This document shows positions 3,675-19,775 of a stretch of 20,000 nt of DNA, piece after piece. How positions within the stretch are numbered: the first letter of the stretch is position 1; the number at the start of each line of letters is the position of its first letter. Location: IMG/VR virus record IMGVR_UViG_3300010342_000180; one strand, 5' to 3'. A program made the position numbers and the translations under genes. Below the pieces are notes generated by a model. The model did no database searches and was not told the origin of the DNA. It saw only the letters and a list, made by a program, of their open reading frames with translations. The DNA is from an uncultured virus (IMG/VR IMGVR_UViG_3300010342_000180) (Duplodnaviria; Heunggongvirae; Uroviricota; Caudoviricetes).

Positions 3675-3877
3675 TTGTTACTTGATTTTTTCTGCAACCC
3701 AACATTACGGTCGGATCTCGACGATCCACTGGTAATAAATCAAGGAGCAAAATCATCGTAATCAATTTTTATTTTTTAAAAAATGAAATTTGCTTCTTGA
3801 GTTTAAAACTGTACCAACCATCATCCGACTCAAGTTAATTTTTTAAATTTACTCCTTGATTTTTATTTTAACCTCAC

Positions 3878-3909
3878 AAAAAAAGGGGCTCGTATTTGAA
3901 CCCCTTTTT
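3878..3909 (-). terminator. intrinsic terminator (possibly bidirectional)
   Basis: AAAAAAAGGGG-CTCGTATTTGAA-CCCCTTTTT, just downstream of the minus-strand gene ending at 3927. Confidence 0.75.
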
Positions 3910-3926
3910 AGACATTTTAAGACACT

Positions 3927-4526
3927 TTATACATTTACCATATCCACACTTACATCTACACTACTTTCAACGGGAGAATTCTTAATAATATATTGATTAC
4001 CCATAAAATGTATTCTCTTAATATTATCTATCGCAATACTTGGATATATTACCTTTAATGGATTAGGATTACTCTTAATAAGATAAGATTCTAATAATTT
4101 TTTTTCGATAACGTTACCAAAATGACGGTATTTTATCTTTAATTTATCATTTTTGTATACTTCATATTGTAGGTAGTATTTTTTAGTATTATCATTATAT
4201 AACACACACTTTGATATGTGGTTACCAACTTTACAGACTTGAGGTTCAAATTCATCTAAATTATTCACCACCTTAACCCTGTCCGAATAATTATTACCCA
4301 TCAGATAATTACCTTCTGCAATTTTTATAATATCCACTTTTCTTGAAGTTGACATACGACCACTTTTAGTAACAGATATATCTTCACGTGTATATGGATT
4401 TTCCGTAACTCTCATTTTGGGACGAGTTTCGTATCTCATCCAAAAAAATGTGCCCCTTTCCTGTGTGGAGAGTAATTTTACTAATTCATCTGTCGTTATT
4501 TCGATAATTTTTCTTTCCTTTTTCAT
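3927..4526 (-). CDS. hypothetical phage protein (199 aa)
   Basis: Start revised to ATG 4526 (MKKERK) because the longer ORF start lies inside the promoter; ETRPKMRVTENPY motif. Confidence 0.8.
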   Translation of the reverse strand: MKKERKIIEITTDELVKLLSTQERGTFFWMRYETRPKMRVTENPYTREDISVTKSGRMSTSRKVDIIKIAEGNYLMGNNYSDRVKVVNNLDEFEPQVCKVGNHISKCVLYNDNTKKYYLQYEVYKNDKLKIKYRHFGNVIEKKLLESYLIKSNPNPLKVIYPSIAIDNIKRIHFMGNQYIIKNSPVESSVDVSVDMVNV

Positions 4527-4553
4527 TTTAATAATTCTAATGGTTACACTCCA

Positions 4554-4584
4554 CAAAGTAAAAAAAATAATTGACATTTACAAA
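4554..4584 (-). promoter_or_regulatory. Bacteroidota-type promoter (minus strand)
   Basis: TTTG-N19-TTACTTTG on the minus strand (one mismatch to TAnnTTTG); the spacer contains AAATGTCA as in the other promoters. Confidence 0.55.
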
Positions 4585-4618
4585 TTATTTTGTAACAAAA
4601 TTTAATCAATATAAAAAA

Positions 4619-4873
4619 TCAAGCAACAAAAAATTCAAGTACCAAAAACCGTATTATATTTTGTTTCTCCAGATCTTGAAATCTAGACCCTCATCTTGGA
4701 ATCTATGCTCTTAAAATTCAAGTAGCAAAAACCATAAACGTGTAGACTTGTCAAGTAACAAGTTTAATGTTATTTGCTACTTGATTATTTATTAACCAAG
4801 AAAACATATCCTGTTATGATGTCAAATACCGAGTTTAATATTATTTGCTACTTGATTATTTATTAACCAGGAA
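4619..4873. repeat. cluster of 12-mer motifs and two partial copies of the 59-bp unit
   Basis: Reverse-orientation motif at 4619, 4635, 4718, 4751; forward TTTGCTACTTGA at 4773, 4844; 4771-4873 is homologous to the 6527 array. Confidence 0.85.
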
Positions 4874-4963
4874 TTTCGGAAGGAGAAACTGTCATTTAAC
4901 AACCGAATAGTATAATTATTTATCCAATATATGGGATAATATTTAAGAAAATGATAATATTAT

Positions 4964-4994
4964 TTTGTAAATTCAAAAACTTTACATATTTTTG
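4964..4994 (+). promoter_or_regulatory. Bacteroidota-type promoter
   Basis: TTTG-N19-TATTTTTG about 30 nt upstream of ATG 5024. Confidence 0.75.
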
Positions 4995-5023
4995 ATTCAA
5001 TGTTTAACTTAATACTTTGAATT

Positions 5024-5308
5024 ATGGAAATGATTTGTGATTTTTCAATCGGAATTGACAATGGTATTGAAAAAAATGTTTTTTTATATGATAACAGATT
5101 TACTGAGGATGAAATTATGGAGTTTTTAGAAAACGTTATCCATGATAAGTTAATTACTATTGGTGAGTGGTGTGAAGGTACAATATCCGATAGTTCTGAT
5201 ACAATTATTATTCAATCCCGTTGGTGTTCAAACTATCAAAAGAGTTGGAGTGATAGTGTATGGACAAACGAGGAAATATCTATTCCGAGGAAAGTATATA
5301 ATATTTAA
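5024..5308 (+). CDS. acidic hypothetical protein (94 aa)
   Basis: ORF lying between a promoter and a terminator. Confidence 0.8.
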   Translation: MEMICDFSIGIDNGIEKNVFLYDNRFTEDEIMEFLENVIHDKLITIGEWCEGTISDSSDTIIIQSRWCSNYQKSWSDSVWTNEEISIPRKVYNI

Positions 5309-5329
5309 TTTACCATAAGTTTTGAGATT

Positions 5330-5357
5330 AAGGGTGGATAACGTCTACCCTTTTTTT
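5330..5357 (+). terminator. intrinsic terminator
   Basis: AAGGGTGGA-TAACG-TCTACCCTT followed by a T-run. Confidence 0.85.
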
Positions 5358-5444
5358 ATTTATAAAGGAGTAAACATGGTATCAACACCATAAGAAATGA
5401 TGTGGCGCATAAAAAATTAAGTAGCAAAAATAGTATTACACAAT

Positions 5445-5532
5445 GTTTATTTGCTCCATGACTTATTGTCAAAACCGTCGAAATCTAAGTTTATTTGCTC
5501 CATGACTTATTGTCAAAACCGTCGAAATCTAA
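5445..5532. repeat. 44-bp tandem repeat x2
   Basis: GTTTATTTGCTCCATGACTTATTGTCAAAACCGTCGAAATCTAA at 5445 and 5489. Confidence 0.95.
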
Positions 5533-5579
5533 CTCAAGAAAAAAAAAATAATTTTGTAGTAAAATAATTTAAAAAATCC

Positions 5580-5610
5580 ATTGTCATATCAAAAATTTTA
5601 CATATATTTG
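5580..5610 (+). promoter_or_regulatory. Bacteroidota-type promoter
   Basis: ATTG-N19-TATATTTG; identical to 8496-8526. Confidence 0.75.
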
Positions 5611-5640
5611 TATAGTATTAAATCAATAAAACATGACATT

Positions 5641-5940
5641 ATGGAAAGAATAACCGTTAAATTTCATAGAATCTATAGGTATTCTGACCCGACAAACAGG
5701 TTTAAATCTGAAATTAAATTTTATATAATAGATGATAAAATTATGGGAACAATGATTTTGATCGGTAGTAAATTAGTGTCAATGGAGGTAATAATTGGTC
5801 CATTTGATTTTGAAGTTATTCCATGTTTTGAAAATAATTTAAGAGAGTGTGAAAAAGATGGTATAATTTCAAATTTGAGTTTTGAGGATGAGATTGAGAT
5901 GATTAAAATTGAAATGCCAATAAGTCCGATGATGAATTGA
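5641..5940 (+). CDS. hypothetical protein (99 aa)
   Basis: Start revised to ATG 5641; the TTG at 5581 is the promoter -33 box. Confidence 0.75.
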   Translation: MERITVKFHRIYRYSDPTNRFKSEIKFYIIDDKIMGTMILIGSKLVSMEVIIGPFDFEVIPCFENNLRECEKDGIISNLSFEDEIEMIKIEMPISPMMN

Positions 5941-6089
5941 TTTTAATTAAACATTATGAAAAAAGGTTAATAATTTGTCCACATATTTATAATTTCGATG
6001 AAATGATCATTTTTTTGATGAATAATTTGGAAATATCAAAAATTGTTTTTAAAATTACATCATTAAATTAATTTATTTAATAATATGTT

Positions 6090-6380
6090 ATGGTAACCAA
6101 AAAACGTATGACAGGACAAGATTATCTTAAAAAATATAATGATTTGAAGTTAAGTTTATCGTCATTAGATTCACACATAACCGAGAGATTAATGTTCTTA
6201 TCAAAACAATTTCCTGAGGCGATTATAATTAATTATCGAGATGATCCAATTAAAGCGAAATGTCTTACAAAAGGATGGGTAGAAAGAGAATCAATTGAAA
6301 ATCGAATATTATATATTCAAAATATTGAAAAGTGGAATAGAGAACAAGAAAATATTATACAATTAAAAATAGTAGAATAG
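6090..6380 (+). CDS. hypothetical protein (96 aa)
   Basis: ORF preceded by a degenerate promoter (TTTGGAAATATCA at 6026) and followed by a terminator. Confidence 0.8.
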   Translation: MVTKKRMTGQDYLKKYNDLKLSLSSLDSHITERLMFLSKQFPEAIIINYRDDPIKAKCLTKGWVERESIENRILYIQNIEKWNREQENIIQLKIVE

Positions 6381-6427
6381 GTAGGTTGTCTGTTTAGTTT
6401 CATCACGTTGATTTTAAGTTGGCTAAG

Positions 6428-6460
6428 AAACCTTGTGAAGAAATTCACAAGGTTTTTTTT
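6428..6460 (+). terminator. intrinsic terminator
   Basis: AAACCTTGTGAA-GAAA-TTCACAAGGTTT plus T-run. Confidence 0.9.
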
Positions 6461-6526
6461 ATTATTAATATAGAATATTCGATCTAAGACAAGATTTATT
6501 AAAATATCAAGTACCAAGTTTAATAT

Positions 6527-6837
6527 TATTTGCTACTTGATTATTTATTAACCAGGAAGAGATGTCCTGTTATGATGTCAAATACTATTTGCTACTTGAT
6601 TATTTATTAACCAGGAAGAGATGTCCTGTTATGATGTCAAATACTATTTGCTACTTGATTATTTATTAACCAGGAAGAGATGCCCTGTTCTAATGTCAAA
6701 TACCATTTGCTACTTGATTATTTATTAACCAGGAAGAGATGCCCTGTTCTAATGTCAAATACCATTTGCTACTTGATTATTTATTAACCAGGAAGAGATG
6801 CCCTGTTATGATGTCAAATACTATTTGCTACTTGATT
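6527..6837. repeat. 59-bp tandem array, 5 copies plus partial
   Basis: TTTGCTACTTGA at 6529, 6588, 6647, 6706, 6765, 6824; few substitutions between units. Confidence 0.97.
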
Positions 6838-6947
6838 TCTTTTGCCCTGGCGCAGATATGTACCGGCAATAAAAAAGTGGTGTATTTTTAAAAATAACTA
6901 TTAAAAAATTTGGAAATTTGGGAATTATCATCTGAATAAATACAATT

Positions 6948-6976
6948 AGATGAATTTCGGTTCATCTTTTTATTTT
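6948..6976 (+). terminator. terminator-like hairpin with UUCG loop
   Basis: AGATGAAT-TTCG-GTTCATCT followed by TTTTATTTT; no gene immediately upstream. Confidence 0.55.
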
Positions 6977-7085
6977 AAAATAATTGCTGATTGATTTTCA
7001 ATTTTTTGACCACAATAAATTTTTGACAAATAATTTGGAAATCTCAAATATTTTACTTAATATTACGGTTTTATATTTTATAATT

Positions 7086-7541
7086 ATGTTAAATTTGGAA
7101 GAAGTTTCATATGATTTATCTAAAGAGGTTAATACCAATTTCTCTAGTTATTTAAATATGATGAAAATTAATAATAAAGATATATTGGTTTTGTCACCGA
7201 TTAATCATTATTATTATAACTTTAATGAATTAGGTAATGTGAAAATATTGGTCCAAACTAAGGAATTTAATAGAATACATAATATTAATAAATTTCTTTC
7301 CGATGTTTCAAAAGTATTATCAAACAAATCAACATTTATCGGTTGTTTTGAAGATAATAAGATTCGTAAAACCGTAACACATATTGATAAAATATTATTT
7401 TACTTATTAAACTTATCAGAAATAGGTGACAGAAAATATTTGTCAAGAAAATTTATGTTAAACTTATTTGTAAAATATGGATTTAAGGTTGTTGATATAA
7501 CAGAAATAGGTAGATATACATATTTTTGTATAAAAAAATAA
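7086..7541 (+). CDS. hypothetical protein resembling a Bacteroidales methyltransferase-like / sugar-transferase N-terminal domain (151 aa)
   Basis: KEFNRIHNINKFL..VSKVL....TFIGCFED...YGFKVVDITEI...TYF pattern recalled from Bacteroidales proteins. Start ATG 7086 downstream of TTTGGAAATCTCA (7034). Confidence 0.6.
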   Translation: MLNLEEVSYDLSKEVNTNFSSYLNMMKINNKDILVLSPINHYYYNFNELGNVKILVQTKEFNRIHNINKFLSDVSKVLSNKSTFIGCFEDNKIRKTVTHIDKILFYLLNLSEIGDRKYLSRKFMLNLFVKYGFKVVDITEIGRYTYFCIKK

Positions 7542-7549
7542 CAAAAAAA

Positions 7550-7581
7550 ATTGGAAATATCATATAAAGTTTTTATTTTTA
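7550..7581 (+). promoter_or_regulatory. Bacteroidota-type promoter (repeated phage version)
   Basis: ATTG-GAAATATCATATAAAGTTTT-TATTTTTA. Confidence 0.7.
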
Positions 7582-7627
7582 CATTGTAGGAGAAAATGAT
7601 TTATCGGTATAATTAAAATTTAAAACG

Positions 7628-7843
7628 ATGGAATATAAAATTCTTGCTTCAAAATATCATCATAGATTAGCAGAACTAGTTAACAATCATATTAAAGATG
7701 ATTGGATACCTCTTGGGAGTCATGTAATCACAGAAGTATGTAGACATAATCGTTATAATAATGATAGCCGACATATTGAAACAATAATTGATGTTGAATA
7801 TAGTCAAACGATGATTAAAAATGAAACCAAAAATCGACATTGA
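7628..7843 (+). CDS. DUF1737-like small protein
   Basis: MEYKIL..LAELVN..IKDDWIPLG...YSQTMIK pattern. Confidence 0.65.
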   Translation: MEYKILASKYHHRLAELVNNHIKDDWIPLGSHVITEVCRHNRYNNDSRHIETIIDVEYSQTMIKNETKNRH

Positions 7844-8024
7844 AAAATTAAGGGAAACTTATCTCGGTAAAAGGATTAAGTGTATTTGGATGAATAATCT
7901 ACATCCAATACTTCCACAAACGAAAGGTACGGTTGAACATATTGATGATATGGGTACATTACACATAAAATGGGATAATGGTAGAATACTTGGAATAAGA
8001 TATTTTCATTCTCTGTTAGGTTAG
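7821..8024 (+). CDS. DUF4314-family protein (C-terminus possibly altered)
   Basis: GKRI..IWM...PILPQTKGTVEHIDDMGTLHIKWDNGRILG signature. Confidence 0.85.
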   Translation: MKPKIDIEKLRETYLGKRIKCIWMNNLHPILPQTKGTVEHIDDMGTLHIKWDNGRILGIRYFHSLLG

Positions 8025-8041
8025 GTTGTTTTTCATATTTG

Positions 8042-8072
8042 ACCCCCGATGTCGTGACATTGGGGGTTTTTT
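8042..8072 (+). terminator. intrinsic terminator
   Basis: ACCCCCGATGTC-GT-GACATTGGGGGT plus T-run. Confidence 0.9.
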
Positions 8073-8188
8073 ATTTTTAAAAATATTGGGAATTTTATTG
8101 TTTCCTCAGATCAGATTTTATCAACACCATAAGAAATGATGTGGCGCATAAAAAATTAAGTAGCAAAAATAGTATTACACAATGTTTA

Positions 8189-8424
8189 TTTGCTCCATGA
8201 CTTATTTACCAGAACCGTCGTAGAGAGTGTCGAGTAAAGAATATAGAACTCTATCTTAACTTAACTTTTGCTCCATGACTTATTTACCAGAACCGTCGTA
8301 GAGAGTGTCGAGTAAAGAATATAGAACTCTATCTTAACTTAACTTTTGCTCCATGACTTATTTACCAGAACCGTCGTAGAGAGTGTCGAGTAAAGAATAT
8401 AGAACTCTATCTTAACTTAACTTT
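8189..8424. repeat. 78-bp tandem array x3
   Basis: TTTGCTCCATGACTTATTTACCAGAACCGTCG... at 8189, 8267, 8345. Confidence 0.97.
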
Positions 8425-8495
8425 CTATTACCAAAACCATCGAAATTTAACTCAAGAAAAAAAATAATTTTGTAGTAAAATAATTTAAAAAATCC

Positions 8496-8526
8496 ATTGT
8501 CATATCAAAAATTTTACATATATTTG
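8496..8526 (+). promoter_or_regulatory. Bacteroidota-type promoter
   Basis: ATTG-N19-TATATTTG; identical to 5580-5610. Confidence 0.75.
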
Positions 8527-8556
8527 TATAGTGTTAAATCAATAAAACTTAAAGTT

Positions 8557-8667
8557 ATGAAAACAAAGAAAATTGACGTACCAGAATGGAAATTATGGGT
8601 TATTTATTTCTTTCTTATGGGCACAATTATCTTAGTCAGGCATCTCATAATTTTTCATATCATTTAA
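8557..8667 (+). CDS. small single-pass membrane protein (36 aa), not in the ORF track
   Basis: MKTKKIDVPEWKLWVIYFFLMGTIILVRHLIIFHII; the ATG is at the same distance from its promoter as ATG 5641 is from the identical promoter. Confidence 0.65.
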   Translation: MKTKKIDVPEWKLWVIYFFLMGTIILVRHLIIFHII

Positions 8668-8677
8668 AATTAAAATA

Positions 8678-8709
8678 GTTGGAAATGTCATATAAAGTTT
8701 ATATCTTTA
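8678..8709 (+). promoter_or_regulatory. Bacteroidota-type promoter (repeated phage version)
   Basis: GTTG-GAAATGTCATATAAAGTTTA-TATCTTTA. Confidence 0.75.
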
Positions 8710-8733
8710 CACTATAAATCAAAATATGATATT

Positions 8734-9057
8734 ATGAAAACCCAAATCACCACAGTAACAAAGTATACGGTATTCAAATATCGTCCGAGTTCAACCCAAT
8801 CAACAAGAATTGTAAATTTTGTAACATCCAATGGTTCAAAAACAGTTGTTAAATTTTCATATGAAACGGGTAATTCATATGAACGATTTAGGGGTGATAT
8901 TTTTAACGGTGAACAACTCAATCTTGTTATGACATTTGATGATATTGATATACAAAGAAACGAATCTATGTATATGAATACAGAAACCGAAATAAAAGAA
9001 CGGGTTGGACTTTTAATGACAAAAGGAATCGAATTTGTTAAACACTTAATTCAATAA
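8734..9057 (+). CDS. hypothetical protein (107 aa)
   Basis: ORF directly after a promoter and 2 nt before the next gene. Confidence 0.8.
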   Translation: MKTQITTVTKYTVFKYRPSSTQSTRIVNFVTSNGSKTVVKFSYETGNSYERFRGDIFNGEQLNLVMTFDDIDIQRNESMYMNTETEIKERVGLLMTKGIEFVKHLIQ

Positions 9058-9059
9058 TT

Positions 9060-9674
9060 ATGGGATACACTACACAATTTGACGGAGTTTTTCACTTGAG
9101 TAGACGTCTTACTGAAGATGAAAAAAAATATATCAATTCATTTTCCAAAACAAGGAGAATGAAACGTGATGTTAAAAAACTTATGGAACTTCATCAGGGA
9201 AAATATGGATATCCGTTCCCTATGAATAACACCCCCGAAGCCATTTATGGTAAGGATGGTGAATATTTCGTAGGTATTGGTCAAGAAAAAGATGGTTCAA
9301 TCATTGATTACAATACCCCTCCCGGTCAGGTTGATTTCGCCGACAAAAATTTCGACTTTAACGAAAGATTGGAAGAAAATGAAAAACGAATCTCAAGAGG
9401 AGAATGTCAACCAGGTTTATGGTGTGACTGGATAGTAACATCTTATGAATATGAAAACGAAGATGTCGTGGAATGGGATGGTGGAGAAAAATTCTACCGT
9501 TATTGTGAGTGGATAAAATATCTTATTAATCACTTCTTCTCAAAATGGGGTGTATTACTCAATGGTAATGTTGTGTGGAGTGGTGAGGAAATAGATGATA
9601 GAGGAAGAATAACCATTGCCGACAATGTTGTTGATGTTCAGGATGCGGTAATAACATATGTTTCACGAAGTTAG
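9060..9674 (+). CDS. conserved phage hypothetical protein (204 aa)
   Basis: MGYTTxFxG...QPGLWCxW...WDGGEKFY..EWIKYLIxHFF..WG..LNG.V.WxGEE motif family recalled from phages. Confidence 0.85.
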   Translation: MGYTTQFDGVFHLSRRLTEDEKKYINSFSKTRRMKRDVKKLMELHQGKYGYPFPMNNTPEAIYGKDGEYFVGIGQEKDGSIIDYNTPPGQVDFADKNFDFNERLEENEKRISRGECQPGLWCDWIVTSYEYENEDVVEWDGGEKFYRYCEWIKYLINHFFSKWGVLLNGNVVWSGEEIDDRGRITIADNVVDVQDAVITYVSRS

Positions 9675-9693
9675 GTTTGTATTACAATTAATT

Positions 9694-9727
9694 AAAAAAG
9701 GGTACCAGATTCTGGTACCCCTTTTTT
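9694..9727 (+). terminator. intrinsic terminator
   Basis: GGGTACCAG-ATT-CTGGTACCC flanked by A- and T-runs. Confidence 0.9.
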
Positions 9728-9851
9728 ATTTATATTATTAAAAAACCTGAAATAATTACACTTCCTAAGAGGATAGATATTGAAAACTCAAGCAGCAGAA
9801 AAAAAATTATAAAAATTAACTTATTAATTAAAAATAAATAATAAAAATTGA

Positions 9852-10322
9852 CGTATTTTTGCTACTTGACTTTATTTAATCCAGAATAAGCCCTGGGCGC
9901 AGAAATGAATCTGGATCATCAATAAAAAACTGGCGTATTTTTGCTACTTGACTTTATTTAATCCAGAATAAGTCCTGGGTGCAGATCTGGATCGGCAATA
10001 AAAAAAAATTATATAATAATTAAAAATAACTGTTAAAAAATTTGGAAATCTCATATAAAATTTTTATTTTTACACCGATAATATAATATTAATAATAAAA
10101 AACTGGCGTATTTTTGCTACTTGACTTTATTTAATCCAGAATAAGCCCTGGGCGCAGAAATGAATCTGGATCATCAATAAAAAACTGGCGTATTTTTGCT
10201 ACTTGACTTTATTTAATCCAGAATAAGTCCTGGGTGCAGATCTGGATCGGCAATAAAAAAAAATTATATAATAATTAAAAATAACTGTTAAAAAATTTGG
10301 AAATCTCATATAAAATTTTTAT
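9852..10322. repeat. 255-bp-period duplication of a repeat-plus-promoter module (internal 82-bp units)
   Basis: Motifs at 9858/9940 recur at 10113/10195; the promoter at 10041 recurs at 10296; constant offset of 255. Confidence 0.95.
10041..10072 (+). promoter_or_regulatory. Bacteroidota-type promoter with no gene directly behind it
   Basis: TTTG-GAAATCTCATATAAAATTTT-TATTTTTA. Confidence 0.65.
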
Positions 10323-10327
10323 CTTTA
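10296..10327 (+). promoter_or_regulatory. Bacteroidota-type promoter
   Basis: TTTG-N20-TATCTTTA. Confidence 0.75.
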
Positions 10328-10358
10328 TATGATTAAATAGTACTTTAATATATAAACA

Positions 10359-11184: not shown

Positions 11185-11246
11185 CATTATAAAAAAAATA
11201 TGTATAATTAATTAATGAAGTGTTCATAGTTTTTTGGTTAATGATT

Positions 11247-11399: not shown

Positions 11400-12242
11400 A
11401 TGACAAAAGAAGAAATTTTAAATCGAACGGGTCTTAATTGGAATGTAAAGACCGAAAATGTAATGACAGCATCTGGTATTGAAATTCCCAATCGTATTGC
11501 ATTAGTTCGTGAAGATATTCAGGAAGTTTTGGGCATACATACTAATGTATATGTACCATATCAAAATGATGAATTGATCGAACTTTTATTTAAGATTTCA
11601 AATCAATCGGGATTAAATATTCATACCGGTGGATTTTTTAAAAATGGTAAGAAAGTGTGGTTTCAGTTAAAATCTGATGATTACAGAATTGGAAATGATA
11701 TGATTAAAGGATATATATCTGGTTTCAATTCATTTGATGGTAGATCATCCCTTACTTTTAGTAATGCTACACTCACAGTCTCGTGCATGAATACTTTTTG
11801 GAATGGTTATGATCAAGTTGAAACTCGTCTGAGACATTCTGCTAAGATGAGACCACGTATTGATGAAATTTTGCGCAAAATTGATGTTCTTTTACAAAAA
11901 GAAAAAAAAGTATTTGAAACAATTCGTAGGATGAATGAAATTCCAATGACACCCGAAATTCGCGAACTCATAACAAAGATGATGTTTAGCCTTAATAACG
12001 AAGAAAAATTGGATTCAATGGATTTATCAACCAATAAACAAAATAAACTCATCAGATTTAATTCGGTTGTGGATATGGAACTCGCAGGCAAAGACCATTC
12101 TATATGGGGGTTATTTTCGGGTGTTACACGATATACCACGCACGAAATGAAAAGAGGGGATAATTCAGAATCAAAGATATTTGGCAGAACAGGAGCAATT
12201 GAAAGAAAAATTTATAATAATCTCGCTCTTATGACTGTTTGA
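11400..12242 (+). CDS. DUF932/DUF945 (TIGR03299-like) phage/plasmid protein
   Basis: GLNWNV...ALVRED..VLG...Y.PYQN...TGGFFKNGKKVW...NSFDG...VSCMNT...RHS...SIWGLFSGVT.YTTH signature. Confidence 0.9.
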   Translation: MTKEEILNRTGLNWNVKTENVMTASGIEIPNRIALVREDIQEVLGIHTNVYVPYQNDELIELLFKISNQSGLNIHTGGFFKNGKKVWFQLKSDDYRIGNDMIKGYISGFNSFDGRSSLTFSNATLTVSCMNTFWNGYDQVETRLRHSAKMRPRIDEILRKIDVLLQKEKKVFETIRRMNEIPMTPEIRELITKMMFSLNNEEKLDSMDLSTNKQNKLIRFNSVVDMELAGKDHSIWGLFSGVTRYTTHEMKRGDNSESKIFGRTGAIERKIYNNLALMTV

Positions 12243-12263: not shown

Positions 12264-12293
12264 GGGGCAGGAATATTCCTGCCCCTCCTTTTT
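12264..12293 (+). terminator. intrinsic terminator
   Basis: GGGGCAGGAATATTCCTGCCCC perfect palindrome followed by TCCTTTTT. Confidence 0.85.
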
Positions 12294-12382
12294 ATGCTGT
12301 AAATTCTAATAAATTTTTAGATCAATAAAATCAAGCAGCAAATATGACAAAATTAAACTGGGAATTATGTTTGCCACTTAAC

Positions 12383-12811
12383 TTTAATCCAGAATAAGCC
12401 CTGGGCCAGATCTGGATCGTCAATAAAAAACTGGCGTATTTTTGCTACTTGACTTTATAAGCCCTGGGCCCAGATCTGGATCGTCAATAAAAAACTGGCG
12501 TATTTTTGCTACTTGATTTTATTTAATCCAGAATAAGTCATGGGCCCAGATCTGGATCGTCAATAAAAAACTGGCGTATTTTTGCTACTTGATTTTATTT
12601 AATCCAGAATAAGTCATGGGTGCAGATCTGGATCGTCAATAAAAAACTGGCGTATTTTTGCTACTTGACTTTATTTAATCCAGAATAAGTCATGGGTGCA
12701 GATCTGGATCGTCAATAAAAAACTGGCGTATTTTTGCTACTTGACTTTATTTAATCCAGAATAAGTTATGGGTGCAGATCTGGATCGTCAATAAAAAACT
12801 GGCGTATTTTT
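12383..12811. repeat. 76-bp tandem array (~5.5 units, one shortened to 64 bp)
   Basis: CAATAAAAAACTGGCGTATTTTT at 12421, 12485, 12561, 12637, 12713, 12789. Confidence 0.97.
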
Positions 12812-12830
12812 AAAAATAACTGTTAAAAAA

Positions 12831-12862
12831 TTTGGAAATGTCATATAAAGTTTTTATCTTTA
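12831..12862 (+). promoter_or_regulatory. Bacteroidota-type promoter (repeated phage version)
   Basis: TTTG-GAAATGTCATATAAAGTTTT-TATCTTTA. Confidence 0.8.
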
Positions 12863-12905
12863 CATTGTGAAGACAAATCATGTTAAACAATCAAACAAAA
12901 AAACT

Positions 12906-13091: not shown

Positions 13092-13321
13092 AAATTTACA
13101 GAGTTTGTGATTATAGTGGCGCCCATATTGGATTATTTGCTACATTAAGGGAAGATAATGATAAAGTTGTATCTGACATTAAAGAAAGTTATGAAATAGC
13201 TGTTAAAAATAATTACATAGATTCGACTTTAGATATTTATTCTGCCGCAGAATCCTATCTTGAAGATAAAGGTATATGGAGATTATATATTGATGAGGAG
13301 ATATTTGTAGATACATATTAA
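13088..13321 (+). CDS. hypothetical protein (77 aa)
   Basis: ATGA-coupled ORF. Confidence 0.75.
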   Translation: MKIYRVCDYSGAHIGLFATLREDNDKVVSDIKESYEIAVKNNYIDSTLDIYSAAESYLEDKGIWRLYIDEEIFVDTY

Positions 13322-13392
13322 ATTTAATAACATGGACAAAGAATATACAATATGGAAAGATAAAATATTATTAACCGAAAAAACTGTAAACG

Positions 13393-13851
13393 ATGAAAAC
13401 ATTTAAAGTTACAAAAAACATCACAATTGAATGCAATTGTAAAAAAACCTCTTATGGTTTTAAACATGAAGCCCAGTTACTAGTTAATGGTCGAGAGGTA
13501 GAAAAATCCAAAGTTTGTTATTATAACAGAACCTGGGAATCTTTTGAATACGAATCAGTAATTATGAAATTACTTAATAAAACTGATTTAATTTCAAAAA
13601 GACAAAAAACTATTTTTCTGAAAAAAGAAAGAGATGAATGTAAAAAGAGTATTCAGAAACATTTTGGATTAATATCCGGTATTGCTAAACTTGGTAATGT
13701 TTTGTATGACAATCAAAAAGATAGTAATACATGGAAAATCAGAATGTTAAAAGCCGGTCTTGGCAATGAATTGTCAATACCTGAAGATTGGAATGTATTA
13801 GATGAAAATGAAAAAGAACGTAGGCTCAATAACGTAATACAAGGTATGTGA
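13393..13851 (+). CDS. conserved phage hypothetical protein (152 aa)
   Basis: GFKHEA.L..NG....K.CYYNRTWESFEYESV motif family recalled from phages. Confidence 0.85.
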   Translation: MKTFKVTKNITIECNCKKTSYGFKHEAQLLVNGREVEKSKVCYYNRTWESFEYESVIMKLLNKTDLISKRQKTIFLKKERDECKKSIQKHFGLISGIAKLGNVLYDNQKDSNTWKIRMLKAGLGNELSIPEDWNVLDENEKERRLNNVIQGM

Positions 13852-13873
13852 AATATCTTAATTTCCTGATTAG

Positions 13874-13902
13874 AAAAAAGCACTATTTCAGTGCTTTTTT
13901 TT
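13874..13902 (+). terminator. intrinsic terminator
   Basis: AAAAAAGCACT-ATTTC-AGTGCTTTTTTT. Confidence 0.85.
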
Positions 13903-13916
13903 ATGCCATAAATTTA

Positions 13917-14069
13917 AATTTCGGATAGAGGATCTGAGATAGAAAATCAAGTAGCAAAATATTTTTTTTACGAATTTCGGATAGAGGATCTGAGATAGAA
14001 AATCAAGTAGCAAAATATTTTTTTACGAATTTCGGATAGAGGATCTGAGATAGAAATTAAGTAGCAAAA
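13917..14069. repeat. 55-56-bp tandem array (~2.7 copies), motif in reverse orientation
   Basis: GGATAGAGGATCTGAGATAGAAA at 13923, 13979, 14034, each followed by T[C/T]AAGTAGCAAA. Confidence 0.95.
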
Positions 14070-14127
14070 CATTAATATTAGCTGCTTGACTTTTATTAAT
14101 TCCTGAGAACTTCAATAATTAATATAA

Positions 14128-14300
14128 TTTTTGCTACTTGACTTTATAAGCCCTTGGCATAGATATGGATCTGGATCGGCAATAAAAAACTGGCGTATTT
14201 TTGCTACTTGACTTTATTTAATCCAGAAGAAGCCCTGGACGCAGAAATGAATCTGGGCCAGCAATAAAAAAATTATATAATAATTAAAAATAATTATTAA
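14128..14300. repeat. two units of the 76/82-bp repeat family
   Basis: Motif at 14130 and 14200; near-identical to segments in 16760-17010 and 9852-10010. Confidence 0.9.
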
Positions 14301-14304
14301 AAAA

Positions 14305-14336
14305 TTTGGAAATGTCATATAAAGTTTTTATCTTTA
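14305..14336 (+). promoter_or_regulatory. Bacteroidota-type promoter (repeated phage version)
   Basis: Identical to 12831-12862. Confidence 0.8.
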
Positions 14337-14375
14337 CACTGATAATTTAATATTAACTAATTAAAATTCGAAATT

Positions 14376-14906
14376 ATGGGATGGACAAGTTTACCAATGC
14401 ATAAACCAGTTAAAGAATGGTTTAAAAATAGCTGGGGTAACAATTATGAAGTGTTAGATTCTGCCCTCATCAAACGCAAAACTTTGTATGGCGCAATAAA
14501 AAATATTCAAACAGGAGATGTTTTTTGTGCCGTGTTTCTTATTCGTTGGAGTAGAGATTATTATAATTTTTCTTATAAGGATATGACCGAGTTTGTTGGA
14601 CCAATTGAAGTTAATTGTCCTAAAAGAATCATGAAATTACTTACACCTTTAAATAATGAAAATGATCCTAATAACTATGCGAGAGACTGGAGGAAACGTG
14701 TTAATGATTATTGGTCCATGCGTAAAAATCTTAAAAATAATGTAATCAAATTATCTGAACCCGCTCTTTTCAAAAGTGGTCATCGTTATCAATATTTTAA
14801 AAAAATAGGACGTATTACATATGCTGGCGAAATGGTAAAGGGTGAATTTCAGCCGATATGCAGAGTAAGAATAAATTTCTCTTATTATGCGTATGACATA
14901 ATTTAA
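14376..14906 (+). CDS. DUF6927-like protein (176 aa)
   Basis: MGW...YGAI....VFCAVFL....FSYKDMTE..GP..NCPKRIMKLLT....YARDWR signature. Confidence 0.75.
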   Translation: MGWTSLPMHKPVKEWFKNSWGNNYEVLDSALIKRKTLYGAIKNIQTGDVFCAVFLIRWSRDYYNFSYKDMTEFVGPIEVNCPKRIMKLLTPLNNENDPNNYARDWRKRVNDYWSMRKNLKNNVIKLSEPALFKSGHRYQYFKKIGRITYAGEMVKGEFQPICRVRINFSYYAYDII

Positions 14907-14977
14907 TTAATAAATTTTAAATTCCTAATAAGAAAAGTATAAAAAGAATAAAATTATACATTCGTATGACAAAACAT

Positions 14978-15005
14978 AAAGTTAGCTAATATGCTAACTT
15001 TTTTT
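14978..15005 (+). terminator. intrinsic terminator
   Basis: AAAGTTAGC-TAATAT-GCTAACTTT plus T-run. Confidence 0.85.
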
Positions 15006-15072
15006 ATATTCGTTTTATTGTTTCAGCCCCTTAATTCATCGGACAAGATTATAGACAGAAATCTGTAATTTT

Positions 15073-15390
15073 ATGATGATGAACAAGAGAACATTTACGC
15101 AGGAAGAGAAGCTTCGTATCATTAAAGAAGCCAGCGAACAGGGAGTAAAATTCATTCTTGAGAAGTATGCACTGTATCCCGCCACCTATTATTCCTGGAA
15201 AAGCAAGCTGGAAGAGATGGGCGAGTCTGGTCTTCAGCATGGGATGACACCAAGGCATTTGAAGAGGATCCGGGAACTGGAAAAAGAGAACTCGGTATTA
15301 AAGCAATTGCTGGCAGAAAAGGAGCTTGAAGGCAAGCTAAAGAGCGAGCTATTAAAAAAAAAGTATGCCCTGGAGAAAAAAAGGAGATAG
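15073..15390 (+). CDS. IS3-family transposase OrfA (HTH plus leucine zipper)
   Basis: KRTFTQEEKLRII...YYSWK HTH pattern and RIRELEKENSVLKQLLAEKELE zipper. Confidence 0.92.
   Translation: MMMNKRTFTQEEKLRIIKEASEQGVKFILEKYALYPATYYSWKSKLEEMGESGLQHGMTPRHLKRIRELEKENSVLKQLLAEKELEGKLKSELLKKKYALEKKRR
15357..15363 (+). other. programmed -1 frameshift site A AAA AAG
   Basis: In phase with OrfA codons; the -1 frame is open from 15330 into OrfB. Confidence 0.8.
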
Positions 15391-15413
15391 TTGGTTCCTT
15401 CATTTTCAGGGGT

Positions 15414-16466
15414 ATGAAAAGAGATACGGCACTTGCAATAGCTGGCATTACCAGGCATCAGTATTACTATAAGCCAAAGACCGGGAGGAGAGGCAAACTG
15501 CCCGGTCAGACGACCTTAAGAATCAATGGAGAGGATCTTGACAGGGTCGCCAATGAGGTTGTAATTGAGCAAATAAAAATAACAAAGTCTGATCCTGACA
15601 CTGATTATGGCTATCACAAAATGACCTATGTTCTTTTGATCCTGGGTTATCTGATTAATCACAAGAAGGTATATCGTTTAATGGATGAGAAAGGTCTTTT
15701 GAAGGACCGATCGCAAAAACCTTCACGGAGCTACGTAAAATATCGCAGAGTGATGCCTCTCTCACCTCTTGAGATATTGGAAATGGATATCAAGTTTGTC
15801 TGGGTTGAAGAACACCGCAGATTTGCATATGTTCTCACCGTCGTTGATACATTCACAAGGGTGGCTTTATACTGGCATGTCGGGTATCAGATCAGGCAGG
15901 CTCAGATTAAAAGCATCTGGGAATATATCATTGTGCGGTATCTTCAGCCTTATGACTGTCTGGGAAAGCAAATCCAGATAGAGATCCGCAATGATAATGA
16001 CAGCAGGTTTGTTGCCAGGGCAGTTCAGAAGTTCTTTCGCGAGAACCAGCTCACACAAGTCTTCACCCATCCTTACACTCCACAGGAGAATGGGCATATT
16101 GAAAGCTTTCATGCTATCCTGTCAGAAAAACTTTCCAGACAAACTTTCTGGTCATTGGCTGAGCTTGAACAATGTCTGACCTTGTTTTATGAAAAATACA
16201 ATAATCACCGTATCCACAGCTCCATTTGCTATTTACCACCGATGGTGTTCTGGAACCTATGGGAACAGGGACACATAAAAAGTTATCGGGATGAGAAGAA
16301 AAGAAAAATCACATTCCGTCTACTGATACCTTATCATAAACTATCGGGAAATATGAACCTGAGGGAAGTTCCTTGCTCACCGGCAACAACCCTCGATGGG
16401 TTGGAGCAGGTGTCTGAAGAAAAAGAAATGAACGGCGCCGTATCATTTCAACAACCATCGGTTTAA
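15414..16466 (+). CDS. IS3-family transposase OrfB (DDE/rve)
   Basis: YGYHKM, INHKKVYRLM, EMDIK, VVDTFTR, RNDND, PQENGHIESF, YNNHRIHSS; lies in the -1 frame relative to OrfA. Confidence 0.95.
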   Translation: MKRDTALAIAGITRHQYYYKPKTGRRGKLPGQTTLRINGEDLDRVANEVVIEQIKITKSDPDTDYGYHKMTYVLLILGYLINHKKVYRLMDEKGLLKDRSQKPSRSYVKYRRVMPLSPLEILEMDIKFVWVEEHRRFAYVLTVVDTFTRVALYWHVGYQIRQAQIKSIWEYIIVRYLQPYDCLGKQIQIEIRNDNDSRFVARAVQKFFRENQLTQVFTHPYTPQENGHIESFHAILSEKLSRQTFWSLAELEQCLTLFYEKYNNHRIHSSICYLPPMVFWNLWEQGHIKSYRDEKKRKITFRLLIPYHKLSGNMNLREVPCSPATTLDGLEQVSEEKEMNGAVSFQQPSV

Positions 16467-16588
16467 CAATCACCTTCGGTCGTTCCTTGCTATGACAAAT
16501 TTAAACCGAAATATTTATGTATGTTTAACCGTCTGTAAAAAAGTCCGATTAATAGGGGGCCAGACCATTATTGATCGACTTTTTGATG

Positions 16589-16694
16589 ATATAAAATAAC
16601 ATATAATAACATAAAATAATATAAAATTACATATAATAACATAAAATTATATATAATAACATAAAATAATATAAAATTACATATAATAATATAA
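16589..16694. repeat. AT-only low-complexity minisatellite
   Basis: Mosaic of ~10-12-nt units (ATAAAATAAC, ATATAATAAC, ATAAAATTAC). Confidence 0.85.
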
Positions 16695-16696
16695 TT

Positions 16697-17015
16697 TTTG
16701 ATACTTGACTTTATAAGCCCTTGGCATAGATCCTGGATCGGTAATAAAAAACTGGCGTATTTTTGCTACTTGACTTTATAAGCCCTTAGCGTAGATATGG
16801 ATCTGGATCGTCAATAAAAAACTGGCGTATTTTTGCTACTTGACTTTATTTAATCCAGAATAAGCCCTGGGCGCAGAAATGAATCTGGATCATCAATAAA
16901 AAACTGGCGTATTTTTGCTACTTGACTTTATTTAATCCAGAATAAGCCCTGGGCGCAGAAATGAATCTGGACCAGCAATAAAAAAAATTATATAATAATT
17001 AAAAATAATTATTAA
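16697..17015. repeat. array of the 65-82-bp repeat family (4 units)
   Basis: Motif at 16697 (variant), 16762, 16832, 16914. Confidence 0.93.
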
Positions 17016-17019
17016 AAAA

Positions 17020-17051
17020 TTTGGAAATGTCATATAAAATTTTTATTTTTA
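17020..17051 (+). promoter_or_regulatory. Bacteroidota-type promoter (repeated phage version)
   Basis: TTTG-GAAATGTCATATAAAATTTT-TATTTTTA. Confidence 0.75.
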
Positions 17052-17109
17052 CACCGATAATATAATATAATATTAATAATATAATATTAACCAGTTAAAA
17101 TTTGAAATT

Positions 17110-17268
17110 ATGGGTACGAGAAATTTAACTCAATTACCCTATACCGAAGGTTTCTTTTTTGGAAAATCTTACCCTGAAGATAAAATGAATGATATGGAAT
17201 TCATAACTAAAGCTCGCAAAGCTATCAATGAAGGATATGATATTTTTTTTTACACGTCATGGTGGTGA
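17110..17268 (+). CDS. 52-aa ORF, probable deletion-fusion remnant, not in the ORF track
   Basis: MGTRNLTQLPYTEGFFFGKSYPEDKMNDMEFITKARKAINEGYDIFFYTSWW lies between a promoter and a terminator. Confidence 0.75.
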   Translation: MGTRNLTQLPYTEGFFFGKSYPEDKMNDMEFITKARKAINEGYDIFFYTSWW

Positions 17269-17273
17269 AAATT

Positions 17274-17305
17274 GAGGGGGGTAAAAACCCCCCCCATTTT
17301 TTTTA
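17274..17305 (+). terminator. intrinsic terminator
   Basis: GGGGGGT-AAAA-ACCCCCC followed by a T-run. Confidence 0.8.
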
Positions 17306-17317
17306 TAATTCGTAGTT

Positions 17318-17812
17318 ATGTCAAAAAGTAATAATGTAATAAAAAGAGTCTTTGCCGAAGTAGCTGAAACAAGTCGACGGAAAGGAGCATATGAAAAATT
17401 TCTTGGAGTCGACAAAGAATTAGGTATTACTGAATCAGAGTTGTTAACCTTAATGAAAGAAAGATATATCAGTATTATTAAAAGTATTAAATATGATATC
17501 ATGATATTAGCTTCTTTAGAGGAAATAATTATGCAACTAAGAGCCATAGAAATGATAGATTCAGAATTAAGATTATCTTTGAATAAGAATTTCATCTATG
17601 CCCGCGCAACCTTCTATAGAAGTGAGAATAAAATTAATGATATCAGAGTTATCGCCGGGAAAATTGAAGATTATGGAGACAATATAGAATCACTTATCAA
17701 GGATCCTAGGTTTAGGTACATATGCATAGAAAAAATTAAAGAAGCTATGAATAATGAAATTGAAAAAAATATCTTTAATTTAAATTTAATATTTAATGAA
17801 AAATTTATCTAA
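17318..17812 (+). CDS. hypothetical protein (164 aa)
   Basis: ORF overlapping the start of the methyltransferase gene. Confidence 0.8.
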   Translation: MSKSNNVIKRVFAEVAETSRRKGAYEKFLGVDKELGITESELLTLMKERYISIIKSIKYDIMILASLEEIIMQLRAIEMIDSELRLSLNKNFIYARATFYRSENKINDIRVIAGKIEDYGDNIESLIKDPRFRYICIEKIKEAMNNEIEKNIFNLNLIFNEKFI

Positions 17813-18707
17813 TCCAGTTGTGTTTAGCGCATTCGATGGCATATCATGTGGGCGCGTTGCTCTTGAAAGAGCCGGCATAAATGTAAGCCTATATTTTGCA
17901 TCTGAATTAATAGTAATTGATGGCAGAATCAATCCCAGTGTACTTATTACACAATCTAATTATCCTGATACAGTACAACTTGGGGATATTTGCCAAATTG
18001 ATGGTAAACCTTTAAGAGGTAGGGTTGATATATTCTTTGGAGGATCACCATGTCAAAGTTTTTCAAATGCCGGACAACGTAATGGATTTGAAGGCAAATC
18101 AAAACTCTTTTATGAATTTGTAAGATTATTAGAAGAAATAAATCCCACATATTTTCTTCTTGAAAATGTGGTTATGAAAAAACAATGGGAACATATTATT
18201 TCTAATATCCTTGGCGTTGATCCTATTCATATTAATTCTTCACTCGTATCAGGACAAAACCGACCAAGAACGTATTGGACAAATATTCCATATACTCCTA
18301 TCAAAGATCATGAAATATTACTTTCAGACGTAATACAAGGTGCTGTTACTGGCGCTAGCAAACACGGTGCGAGAAATCCAAATTATGGTGTAATACCTGA
18401 CGAAACAAAATGGAAATCCAAAGACTGGAAATTCAATCCAAATAATAAATCACGGTGCCTGGTAAGATCTACGGGACATTATCTGAATATACAAGGTGAA
18501 ATAGTAAAACTTACTCCAGAAAACTGCGAAAAGCTACAAACATTACCTGTAGGGTATACTAAAGTACATGGTATATGTAATACAGATAGAATTAAAGCTC
18601 TTGGAGATGCATGGACGGTAGATGTTCTGGTTAAAGCTTTCTTTAAAAATCTACCATGGGCTTTAAATTATAAAGATAAGCCTATATACTTTTCTGAAAA
18701 AGTGTAA
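17796..18707 (+). CDS. DNA (cytosine-5)-methyltransferase, apparently orphan
   Basis: Motif I FDGISC, IV GGSPCQSFS, VI LLENV, VIII QNRPRTYW, IX LTPENCEKLQTLP, X ALGDAWTV. Confidence 0.93.
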   Translation: MKNLSNPVVFSAFDGISCGRVALERAGINVSLYFASELIVIDGRINPSVLITQSNYPDTVQLGDICQIDGKPLRGRVDIFFGGSPCQSFSNAGQRNGFEGKSKLFYEFVRLLEEINPTYFLLENVVMKKQWEHIISNILGVDPIHINSSLVSGQNRPRTYWTNIPYTPIKDHEILLSDVIQGAVTGASKHGARNPNYGVIPDETKWKSKDWKFNPNNKSRCLVRSTGHYLNIQGEIVKLTPENCEKLQTLPVGYTKVHGICNTDRIKALGDAWTVDVLVKAFFKNLPWALNYKDKPIYFSEKV

Positions 18708-18820
18708 GTAAATTGTCAAATTTAATTAATAATTTTAAATCTGAATGGGAGATTGTCTATGTTATACAAAAAAAAATAGATGATTTTAAACATTTTTAAT
18801 ACTAATAGGTATTTATAAGC

Positions 18821-19057
18821 ATGGAAACTAAAGAACTGGTATATCTTTTTCTTTATAATCCAATGGTTTATACATCGGGATGGACAACTATAAGTGTTCA
18901 TAAAAGTCGTAAAAAGCATTATGTGCCATGGAAAAACATAAACAAATCGTCCAAAAAATATGGTGTGATAACTTTAAATCAGATAAAGAAAAAAAAAGAA
19001 CATCCCTTCGGTAAATTTGAAGATTGGAGAGTAGTTCCAATGATATTAGAATCATAA
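18821..19057 (+). CDS. hypothetical phage protein, probably with two compensating frameshifts
   Basis: ORF is open, but between the A5 at 18911 and the A9 at 18989 the alternative frame (ALCAMEKHKQIVQKIW...) looks more protein-like. Confidence 0.65.
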   Translation: METKELVYLFLYNPMVYTSGWTTISVHKSRKKHYVPWKNINKSSKKYGVITLNQIKKKKEHPFGKFEDWRVVPMILES

Positions 19058-19136
19058 AAATATTTTTATTAAAATGCTTGATTTTATCGTTTAAATTATG
19101 TATTATTTAATATATGATAATTAAAATATTTAATTG

Positions 19137-19361
19137 ATGACAAAAAAAGTACCTAAAGATCCAAACCAGAGAAATATCTCTACATTATACTCTCGCAGAA
19201 GAGCATTAGTACCTACTTATATTCCTATCGCCCACCATGTGTATTACGACGGATCATCTTTCAGGGTAAGAGTCCGCATTAATGGAAAAACAAATTCATG
19301 GAACACATCTGATAAAAAGAAGGCGATAGAATACCGGGACTTTTTGATTTTGTCAAGGTGA
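19137..19361 (+). CDS. small basic protein, putative AP2-like DNA-binding domain
   Basis: HVYYDGSSFRVRVRINGKTNSWNTSDKKKAIEYRD fits a three-strand-plus-helix pattern; followed by a terminator. Confidence 0.65.
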   Translation: MTKKVPKDPNQRNISTLYSRRRALVPTYIPIAHHVYYDGSSFRVRVRINGKTNSWNTSDKKKAIEYRDFLILSR

Positions 19362-19390
19362 GTTGTATTACCTACGTCCCGGCCCTGATG

Positions 19391-19432
19391 AAACCCATCC
19401 AAATTTGATTATTATAGGATGGGTTTCTTTTT
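19391..19432 (+). terminator. intrinsic terminator
   Basis: AAACCCATCC...GGATGGGTTT followed by CTTTTT. Confidence 0.75.
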
Positions 19433-19560
19433 ATTCGTATGACATAATAGAAGGGCGTTTTGCTACTTGACTTTTTAAATTTAAATCTCAACATGATATA
19501 TTTGACATATTACCCCTAGCAAAATTTTCTAAATCCAGTTATTCGTATGACATAATATAA

Positions 19561-19775
19561 ATTTTATTTGCTACTTGACTTTTTAAAATACGTATGACAT
19601 ACTATTTCTTCTTTTAGACATTTTATAACATATTTTATTTGCTACTTGACTTTTTAAAATACGTATGACATACTATTTCTTCTTTTAGACATTTTATAAC
19701 ATATTTTATTTGCTACTTGACTTTTTAAAATACGTATGACATATTATAACATATTTTATTTGCTACTTGACTTTT
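19561..19775. repeat. 71-bp tandem array (plus one 50-bp unit)
   Basis: TTTGCTACTTGA at 19567, 19638, 19709, 19759; units also carry CGTATGACATA. Confidence 0.95.

Follow-up and report, generated by a model that had tools for sequence, protein, structure and literature searches.

An inverted-pair intergenic motif confined to a probable terminal repeat of an uncultured phage: candidate operators of first-wave genes

Results

Distribution of a 12-mer in the window

A 12-mer, TTTGCTACTTGA, recurs between the genes of the uncultured virus record IMGVR_UViG_3300010342_000180 (IMG/VR; Caudoviricetes), of which one stretch of 20,000 nucleotides, referred to here as the window, was analysed. Small open reading frames (ORFs) and consensus promoters are present in a zone with its left boundary at 3345-3675 (Table 1). 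The motif was detected in 30 exact copies (27 on the + strand and 3 on the - strand), or in 38 when up to one mismatch was allowed, against a chance expectation of 0.15 (maximum 2) in 200 dinucleotide shuffles. At up to one mismatch, the copies span positions 3740-19770 and are all intergenic; none lies inside a gene, inside the insertion sequence of the zone or left of 3675 in the window, and the 12-mer is also absent from 5.2 kb of additional left flank taken from other assemblies. Both the count of about 30 copies, with their positions, and their purely intergenic placement, reported in a preliminary description made from the letters of this DNA, were therefore confirmed.

Table 1. Features of the zone and its borders (positions in the window; an arm is one half of the inverted pair described in the text).
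Position	Feature	Strand	Remarks
3345-3557	98-bp A-tract tandem (TRF)		Left zone boundary
3568-3581	Hairpin		Left zone boundary
about 3610-3675	G-rich tract		Likewise placed in G001 and G002, at their contig ends
3740-3859	Degenerate inverted pair (3740 -, 3789 +, 3848 +)		Adjoins first gene
3927-4526	First zone gene, no assigned function	-	Homologue first after G-tract in G001 and G002, on + strand there
4619-4869	Reverse arms 4619, 4635, 4718, 4751; pair 4751/4773 (12-nt spacer); two-copy 71-bp repeat 4761-4869		Promoter-like site 4964-4994
5330-5610	Cassette: terminator 5330-5352, pair 5417/5450 (23-nt spacer), 44-bp x2 array with variant TTTGCTCCATGA	+	Promoter-like site 5580
6425-6837	Cassette: terminator 6425-6458, pair 6507/6529 (12-nt spacer), 59-bp x5.4 array, 6 arms	+	
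8041-8526	Cassette: terminator 8041-8068, pair 8156/8189 (23-nt spacer), 78-bp x3 array	+	Promoter-like site 8496; copy of 5.4-kb cassette
9700-10327	Cassette: terminator 9700-9720, degenerate reverse arm 9788, 82-bp arm pairs inside 255-bp duplication	+	Promoter-like sites 10041, 10296
11400-12242	DUF932 gene	+	Common to related zones; promoter 11331 without upstream arm
12264-12862	Cassette: terminator 12264-12285, pair 12331/12370 (29-nt spacer), 64-76-bp array, 5 exact arms	+	Promoter-like site 12831
13917-14336	Cassette: 56-bp x2.8 reverse-arm array, pair 14057/14078 (11-nt spacer), forward arms 14130, 14200		Promoter-like site 14305
15019-16567	IS3-type insertion: two transposase ORFs, terminal inverted repeats, TTAT on both sides	+	Ends approximate
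16694-17051	Cassette: 70/82-bp array, 4 forward arms, no reverse arm	+	Promoter-like site 17020
17318-17812	Conserved 164-aa gene; long helices around three-stranded Arg-bearing sheet	+	In all related zones
19137-19361	Standalone 74-aa protein, AP2/integrase arm-binding-type fold (predicted)	+	Last gene before final arrays
19436-19775	Final 71/50-bp arrays, 5 arms	+	Each unit also with CGTATGACA
19776-20000	49-bp hairpin array without motif		Assemblies break in array

The motif is present in all 10 zone gaps of at least 251 bp and in none of the 8 gaps of 215 bp or less. Between 3675 and 19775, eight of the nine distinct tandem arrays with a period of at least 40 bear the motif or a variant, and the sole motif-free one is an AT-only array at 16591. 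The spacers of these arrays repeat, and no CRISPR array and no cas or Rfam match was found in the window. The arrays were also seen in other assemblies and are therefore not an artefact of the window assembly; their copy numbers vary between assemblies, which may reflect strain variation or assembly in repeats. The window DNA was found at 0.91-0.93 of sampled words in 14 DNA runs from 12 studies, mostly of digesters, sludge and wastewater, and one assembly, L003, matches the window almost exactly and is possibly not independent.

The 12-mer as one arm of an inverted pair

The 12-mer belongs to an inverted pair and forms one of its two arms; in the pair, TCAAGTAGCAA is separated by 11-60 nt from TTGCTACTTGA. 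The large gaps share a layout of terminator hairpin, reverse arm (TCAAGYAGCAA), spacer, forward arm (TTGCTACTTGA), tandem forward arms, A-tract and promoter, and in 10 of 18 gaps the arms lie behind a terminator and ahead of a promoter. The reverse copies form the left arm of a pair at the entry of eight of the ten motif-bearing gaps, with spacers of 12, 12, 11, 23, 23, 29, 39 and 60 nt, and it is the forward arms that are amplified in tandem. The promoters, assigned by consensus match only, have the form TTTG-19/21-TAnnTTT(G/A); TTTG/TANNTTTG is given as the Bacteroidetes housekeeping promoter consensus in the available part of PMC6847099. In the eight cases with a matched -7 box (TAnnTTT(G/A)), the last arm lies 108-173 bp upstream of it. 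A reading of the arm as the -7 box itself was rejected, as it fits only the 64-82-bp family described below.

When the arms were clustered by their flanks, five multi-copy families plus singles were obtained. The first comprises 15 arms in 64-82-bp units (four gaps), the second 8 arms in 59/71-bp units (two gaps) and the third 5 arms in 44/78-bp units (two gaps), and the remaining two are those of the 56-bp and the 71/50-bp arrays. The repeat units had been described as unrelated and amplified independently; several unit sizes proved to be related, leaving five flank-defined families instead of seven unrelated ones, and independent amplification holds for these five and not beyond them. Between the 18 flank clusters, the arms are identical at 0.86, compared to 0.28-0.43 for the flanks and 0.31 for background, and within four families 1 of 44 columns is variable in the arms compared to 48 of 96 in the flanks, both tests being partly circular because the copies were chosen by the arm. 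These values agree with the earlier proposal that the 12-mer is the conserved element. About 8 of the 13 window arrays end near an arm by eye, which is about what unit length predicts, and a preference of arrays for breaking at the arm was discarded.

The dinucleotide GpC is depleted in the genes at 3.9-9.7 kb (3927-9674), where 13 were observed and 67 expected; elsewhere in the window the ratio is 0.9-0.98, with normal values in the genes to the left of 3345 and to the right of 10.4 kb. The arms within the cleared stretch mostly keep their GC step. As the depletion is local in the window and genome-wide in the related contigs G001 and G002, it does not serve as a general marker of the zone. 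One possible reason for the loss at 3927-9674 is that DNA entering first avoids a GpC-directed host enzyme.

The zone as a probable long terminal repeat

In three DNA runs, contig depth, which is not copy number, rises about twofold across 3345-3675 (step at 3.4-3.65 kb): from 36.2 (one 62-kb contig) to 77.5, 79.1 and 68.7 in X2, from 5.2-7.0 to 12.5-13.6 in X1, and from 3.5-7.7 to 8.4-12.6 in X5, which is noisy. These contig-level values belong to four runs followed over 1-6500, that is, the left border; in the fourth, the RNA run X15, contigs cover 19 of 30 bins, with no bearing on expression. In one other assembly, the contigs at 3.7-6.3, 10.1-13.3 and 16.3-20 kb have similar coverage in their names (2.65-2.98). 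Because contig depth doubles at 3.4-3.65 kb, the zone is probably a long direct terminal repeat (at least 16 kb) of a jumbo phage, with 3345-3675 as its probable left physical end. The 49-bp array at 19776-20000, which forms a strong double hairpin (z -4.8), is a candidate for the far boundary or end signal of the repeat.

The promoters and, weakly, the protein cluster of the insertion sequence (Bacteroidales entries plus other taxa) point to Bacteroidota as the host phylum. The IS3-type element is motif-free and not part of the arm system. It looks intact, sits inside the probable terminal repeat and could help to find the host.

Related zones

A profile of the protein encoded at 17318-17812 recovered 40 loci, 23 of them distinct. 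The order G-tract, first gene, DUF932 gene, 17318 homologue, 19137 homologue and CGTATGACA repeats is shared by G001, which encodes a portal-like protein, and G002. G001 has a homologous pair, TTAATTGGCAA..TTGCCAATTAA, the arm of which is identical to that of the window at 8 of 11 positions (shuffle p 0.004), and a 12-nt spacer is found in 7 of its 10 pairs and in 2 of the 8 window pairs. The arm of G002 is WTDGTTTGGC. All exact arm matches are confined to 15.5 of 137 kb in G001 (25/25) and to the first 21.6 of 40 kb in G002 (32/32), and in four near-complete genomes (records of 288-324 kb, 92-100% complete) the matches fall in single blocks of 11-29 kb (7/7, 17/17, 29/29 and 7/7), with 0-1 in controls. 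Each relative zone bears its own variant arm, and most of the 23 distinct loci have a clustered motif of their own, the core of which is YGG in place of the window's TAG. In G002, the half-site lies 37, 46-47 or 57-58 bp from the -7 box in all 16 measured cases, a helical ladder (Rayleigh R 0.96 at 10.5 bp) that excludes 6 further sites without a promoter within 120 bp.

The motif system is therefore real and clade-wide, and the absence from related phages that had been named as a finding that would speak against it did not occur, since the relatives carry homologous variant arms. With these zone-confined arms, the excess conservation and the GC core kept in the GpC-cleared stretch, the likeness to a protein-binding site spread over about 16 kb is also borne out.

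No cultured close relative was found: among the matches listed, those of the DUF932 gene are below 26% identity and the first gene has none. A tandem-pattern scan of viral contigs returned 2 unrelated coding repeats, the multi-copy rows without window homology in a metagenome scan (41 rows) were unrelated repeats, and locus searches with single proteins had no result. A promoter-pattern scan returned 28 loci, of which L075 alone is a zone relative, and a two-arm pattern scan gave mostly single matches, with L190 useful.

Candidate binding proteins

The ORF at 19137-19361 has 33 relatives at E 0.001. Its product was modelled (pLDDT 85.5) as a three-stranded antiparallel sheet on a helix. The top Foldseek rows are the arm-type binding domains 3jtz and 3rmp (E 0.09-0.12), and the top VIA rows are AP2 domains, with 6sy0 at Z 5.2 (root-mean-square deviation, rmsd, 3.0; 50 aligned); the AP2 domain 2gcc reached Z 4.2 (rmsd 1.8; 45 aligned). 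The predicted three- or four-stranded sheet plus helix and invariant Arg residues are shared with AP2/ERF and integrase arm-type domains (6sy0, 2gcc, 3jtz, 3rmp, 1bb8), from which the family differs in being a standalone phage protein of 60-110 aa without an integrase or nuclease domain, and in the weakness of the matches. The Atlas lead for the family is PF02920 (0.83; 41% of members), and comparison with T5 HNH endonuclease genes gave E 0.1. AP2 domains read GC-containing sites.

This AP2-like gene marks the far end of the zone, after the 17318 gene, in the window and in 22 of the 23 distinct related loci. In a set of 19 loci, which omits L099 and L123 (no clear motif), L103 (a near-duplicate of L104) and L125 (no AP2 match), 247 of 249 motif matches lie before a point 1.5 kb past the AP2-like gene (256 kb) and 2 in the 111.5 kb beyond, and 17 of the 19 loci have motif matches within 700 bp of the gene. 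An intact frame of this type was detected in 1 of 401 Bacteroidota genomes, in a bin also holding a zone contig. The AP2-like protein is the main candidate for the binder of the arms, with chances somewhat below even.

The 17318 protein, with an Arg-bearing sheet of its own, is the rival candidate. None of its fold matches was informative, its profile does not resemble that of the AP2 family, and the motif is followed no more closely by the sheet than by the remainder of the protein. The correlation of motif distance is stronger with 17318 distance (0.34-0.45) than with AP2 distance (0.15-0.20); the short AP2-like domain is a noisy marker, and its adjacency to the motif zone may reflect only a shared border.

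Neighbouring genes and differences between assemblies

A second word, CGTATGACA, occurs at 14890, 14963 and 19436-19741; in the window, G001 and G002 it is clustered behind the AP2-like gene. It is the top clustered motif in L123 and is kept better across lineages than the arm. A C5 DNA methyltransferase gene (17796-18707) adjoins the 17318 gene, and G001 has a different methyltransferase-like gene there. The first zone gene has no Pfam or PHROG match; it is inverted relative to its G001 and G002 homologues, with degenerate inverted arms flanking both sides. At the edge of the unique region, a standalone gene (3046-3327) encodes a type II chorismate mutase.

The 255-bp duplication of the 9.7-10.3-kb cassette is single-copy in L023 and L036. 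In L036, three extra genes (3347-4843) stand in place of about 30 bp immediately downstream of the 10.3-kb promoter, among them one that weakly matches sigma-70 region 2, below the cut-off, and one with DUF6794; further left (14968-18189), L036 encodes a 1073-aa protein with a Pel9A-like beta-helix. GATC and CCWGG sites were also considered as a decoy and rejected: their enrichment in the window is modest, and GATC is absent from G002.

Discussion

The reading that we favour, with a probability of roughly 0.58, is that the 12-mer is the half-site of operators for a phage protein that controls first-wave genes within the terminal repeat of a jumbo phage. The window would then be the junction of the unique region and the long direct terminal repeat of a Bacteroidota jumbo phage, and the repeat a string of first-wave cassettes, each with terminator, two-armed site, A-tract, host-type promoter and small genes. 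Host RNA polymerase would fire the cassettes upon entry. The phage protein, most likely the standalone AP2-fold protein, would accumulate later, read the operator as double-stranded DNA, bind the arms that precede most cassettes and flank its own gene, and silence the first wave through coating or looping of the upstream DNA. Local slippage would multiply arms, and arm-bearing units would be retained. In mycobacteriophage L5, many oriented intergenic sites (stoperators) serve one phage protein, and p4 of phi29 switches early transcription from upstream inverted sites, with other proteins and hosts. Repression is a possible, tentative choice for the direction of control; it is favoured because the promoters are near consensus and the candidate gene comes at the end of the zone with sites around it, and because T5 pre-early shut-off also needs a phage protein, according to the part of PMC10644984 available. 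Activation is distinctly unlikely. The preliminary description as a whole is partly supported, and the centromere that it had suggested is not supported, given one site cluster per transcription cassette, between terminator and promoter. An injection signal, which it had also named, or a role at the terminus may apply, as the zone appears to be the terminal repeat.

Several observations weigh against the operator reading. Two of the ten motif-bearing gaps have no reverse arm, the arms do not overlap the promoters, and promoter-like sites at 7550 and 11331, among several, have no arms. Helical phasing of the arm-promoter distance is not significant in the window (R 0.31-0.33) or among pooled distinct distance values (p 0.12). 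The fold matches of the candidate binder are weak, with no Foldseek row at 0.001 and Z under 8, Pfam assigned no AP2 or arm-binding family to any of its 33 family members, and the AP2/arm-type fold also binds RNA. When 17318 relatedness was fixed, no co-variation between motif and AP2-like protein was detected (partial rho -0.15, p 0.82; -0.11, p 0.74; one of 20 motifs out of register in each run). L125 has its own clustered motif (ACGTACTTGG-like) beyond the 17318 homologue and no AP2 match in the fetched flank, and L099 and L123 have an AP2-like gene and no clear arm motif. The depth step is one of contigs, not of copy number, at the left border and with a noisy X5, and the window holds no virion gene, phage identity resting on relatives.

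The main rival, which is unlikely, takes the arms not as transcription operators but as structural signals of terminal-repeat biology, where a protein that organises the repeat would land, acting in stepwise injection, end protection, end-to-end recombination or duplication of the repeat at packaging. The strict confinement of the arms to the doubled zone would suit such a role, as would the best Foldseek rows of the AP2-like protein, which are recombination arm-binding domains, and the clearing of GpC only in genes of the first 6 kb, as for DNA exposed first. The dense arrays at the far edge also stand where T5 has its repeat-rich injection stop region, as described in the available text of 10.1101/866236 and PMC10644984. 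In those parts of the literature that were available, T5/BF23 (about 9.7 kb) and the host-takeover module of SPO1 combine a doubled end, small early genes, host promoters and a repeat-rich non-coding edge (PMC10644984, PMC3896407, 10.1101/866236), a layout that the zone would probably share; they differ in phage lineage and host phylum, and no per-cassette two-armed site is described there. However, the T5 signal is one region and not one per gene, whereas the window has one cluster per cassette; the helical phase to the promoter is fixed in G002; and, the insertion sequence aside, no recombinase was found among the window ORFs.

A reading by passive homology, in which the arm is a mere shared piece of cassettes copied around the zone, kept uniform through recombination and with no binder, is very unlikely. 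Such cassettes are known as PeSL in T4-type phages, where the available portions of PMC2839356 and PMC4122927 describe repeated intergenic units of terminator and host-type promoter, small variable genes and gene exchange, all of which recall the window. Whole cassettes are indeed duplicated (5.4 and 8.2 kb), the 64-82-bp family occupies four gaps, and gene content behind the 10.3-kb promoter differs between assemblies. PeSL recombine with each other to give indels and mini-circles; the 255-bp allelic duplication and a 1.5-kb gene replacement between assemblies may be of this kind, the ends of the replacement lying outside the arms. On the other hand, flanks are near background between families while the arms are kept, both arm orientations persist with spacers of differing length, the GC core is retained where GpC has been cleared, and in each related lineage the two arms have been made uniform for a variant of its own. 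According to the same portions, PeSL are about 100 bp long, with sigma-70 boxes, a hairpin in or next to the promoter and a Shine-Dalgarno sequence, features that the window gaps fail, being 251-705 bp long with a promoter of the TTTG/TAnnTTT(G/A) type and the hairpin hundreds of bases upstream of the promoter. PeSL also sit in internal hyperplastic regions of circularly permuted genomes, unlike the probably terminal zone of the window (PMC2839356, PMC4122927), and a two-armed operator, tandem arm arrays or a linked DNA-binding gene are not described for them there.

The ESAS of Cluster K mycobacteriophages, as far as presented in the available sections of PMC3203893 and PMC11373665, are likewise repeated intergenic imperfect inverted repeats with a variable spacer and a lineage-specific consensus, for which binding of a regulator has been proposed. 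Their arms are 15-17 bp long, overlap a SigA-like promoter and abut the start-associated sequence, whereas those of the window are 11 bp long, lie 108-173 bp upstream of the -7 box, are tandemly amplified and form one block. The arm system thus fails defining features of both PeSL and ESAS.

Still less probable is a decoy or docking array for a host regulator, nucleoid or defence protein, a role also named in the preliminary description. First-entering DNA would meet host proteins first, and the motif varies between lineages that possibly have different hosts; however, among the 401 Bacteroidota genomes, which may not include the true host, 99 have any copy of the 12-mer, at most 5 each, and the reversed control is not exceeded. 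In these genomes the 12-mer thus lacks the enrichment that marks host chromosome signals of the Chi, KOPS or parS type. That the inverted pair acts as a hairpin, in RNA or in single-stranded DNA, is extremely improbable. Of four pairs tested, two outdo most shuffles in folding (z -3.0 and -1.9), but the energies are just -2.8 to -4.6 kcal/mol, the stem is interrupted by mismatches, the majority of arms are direct repeats without a partner, the sites lie behind terminators, and no Rfam family matches the arm pairs or the window.

A literature search, which covered few subscription papers and no supplements, found no description of the motif or the zone, and neither is mentioned in the available parts of PMC12619734 and PMC7824862. 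Almost nothing is known of gene timing and DNA delivery in such uncultured jumbo phages. For these, a site, its candidate reader and the genomic compartment around them are now at hand for in vitro work that does not need the phage, and the motif block flags probable physical ends in metagenomic assemblies of the lineage. The AP2 domain is best known from plants and apicomplexans; if the reading is true, its counterpart in a prokaryotic virus would be a regulator that consists of the AP2 fold alone and has a mapped operator.

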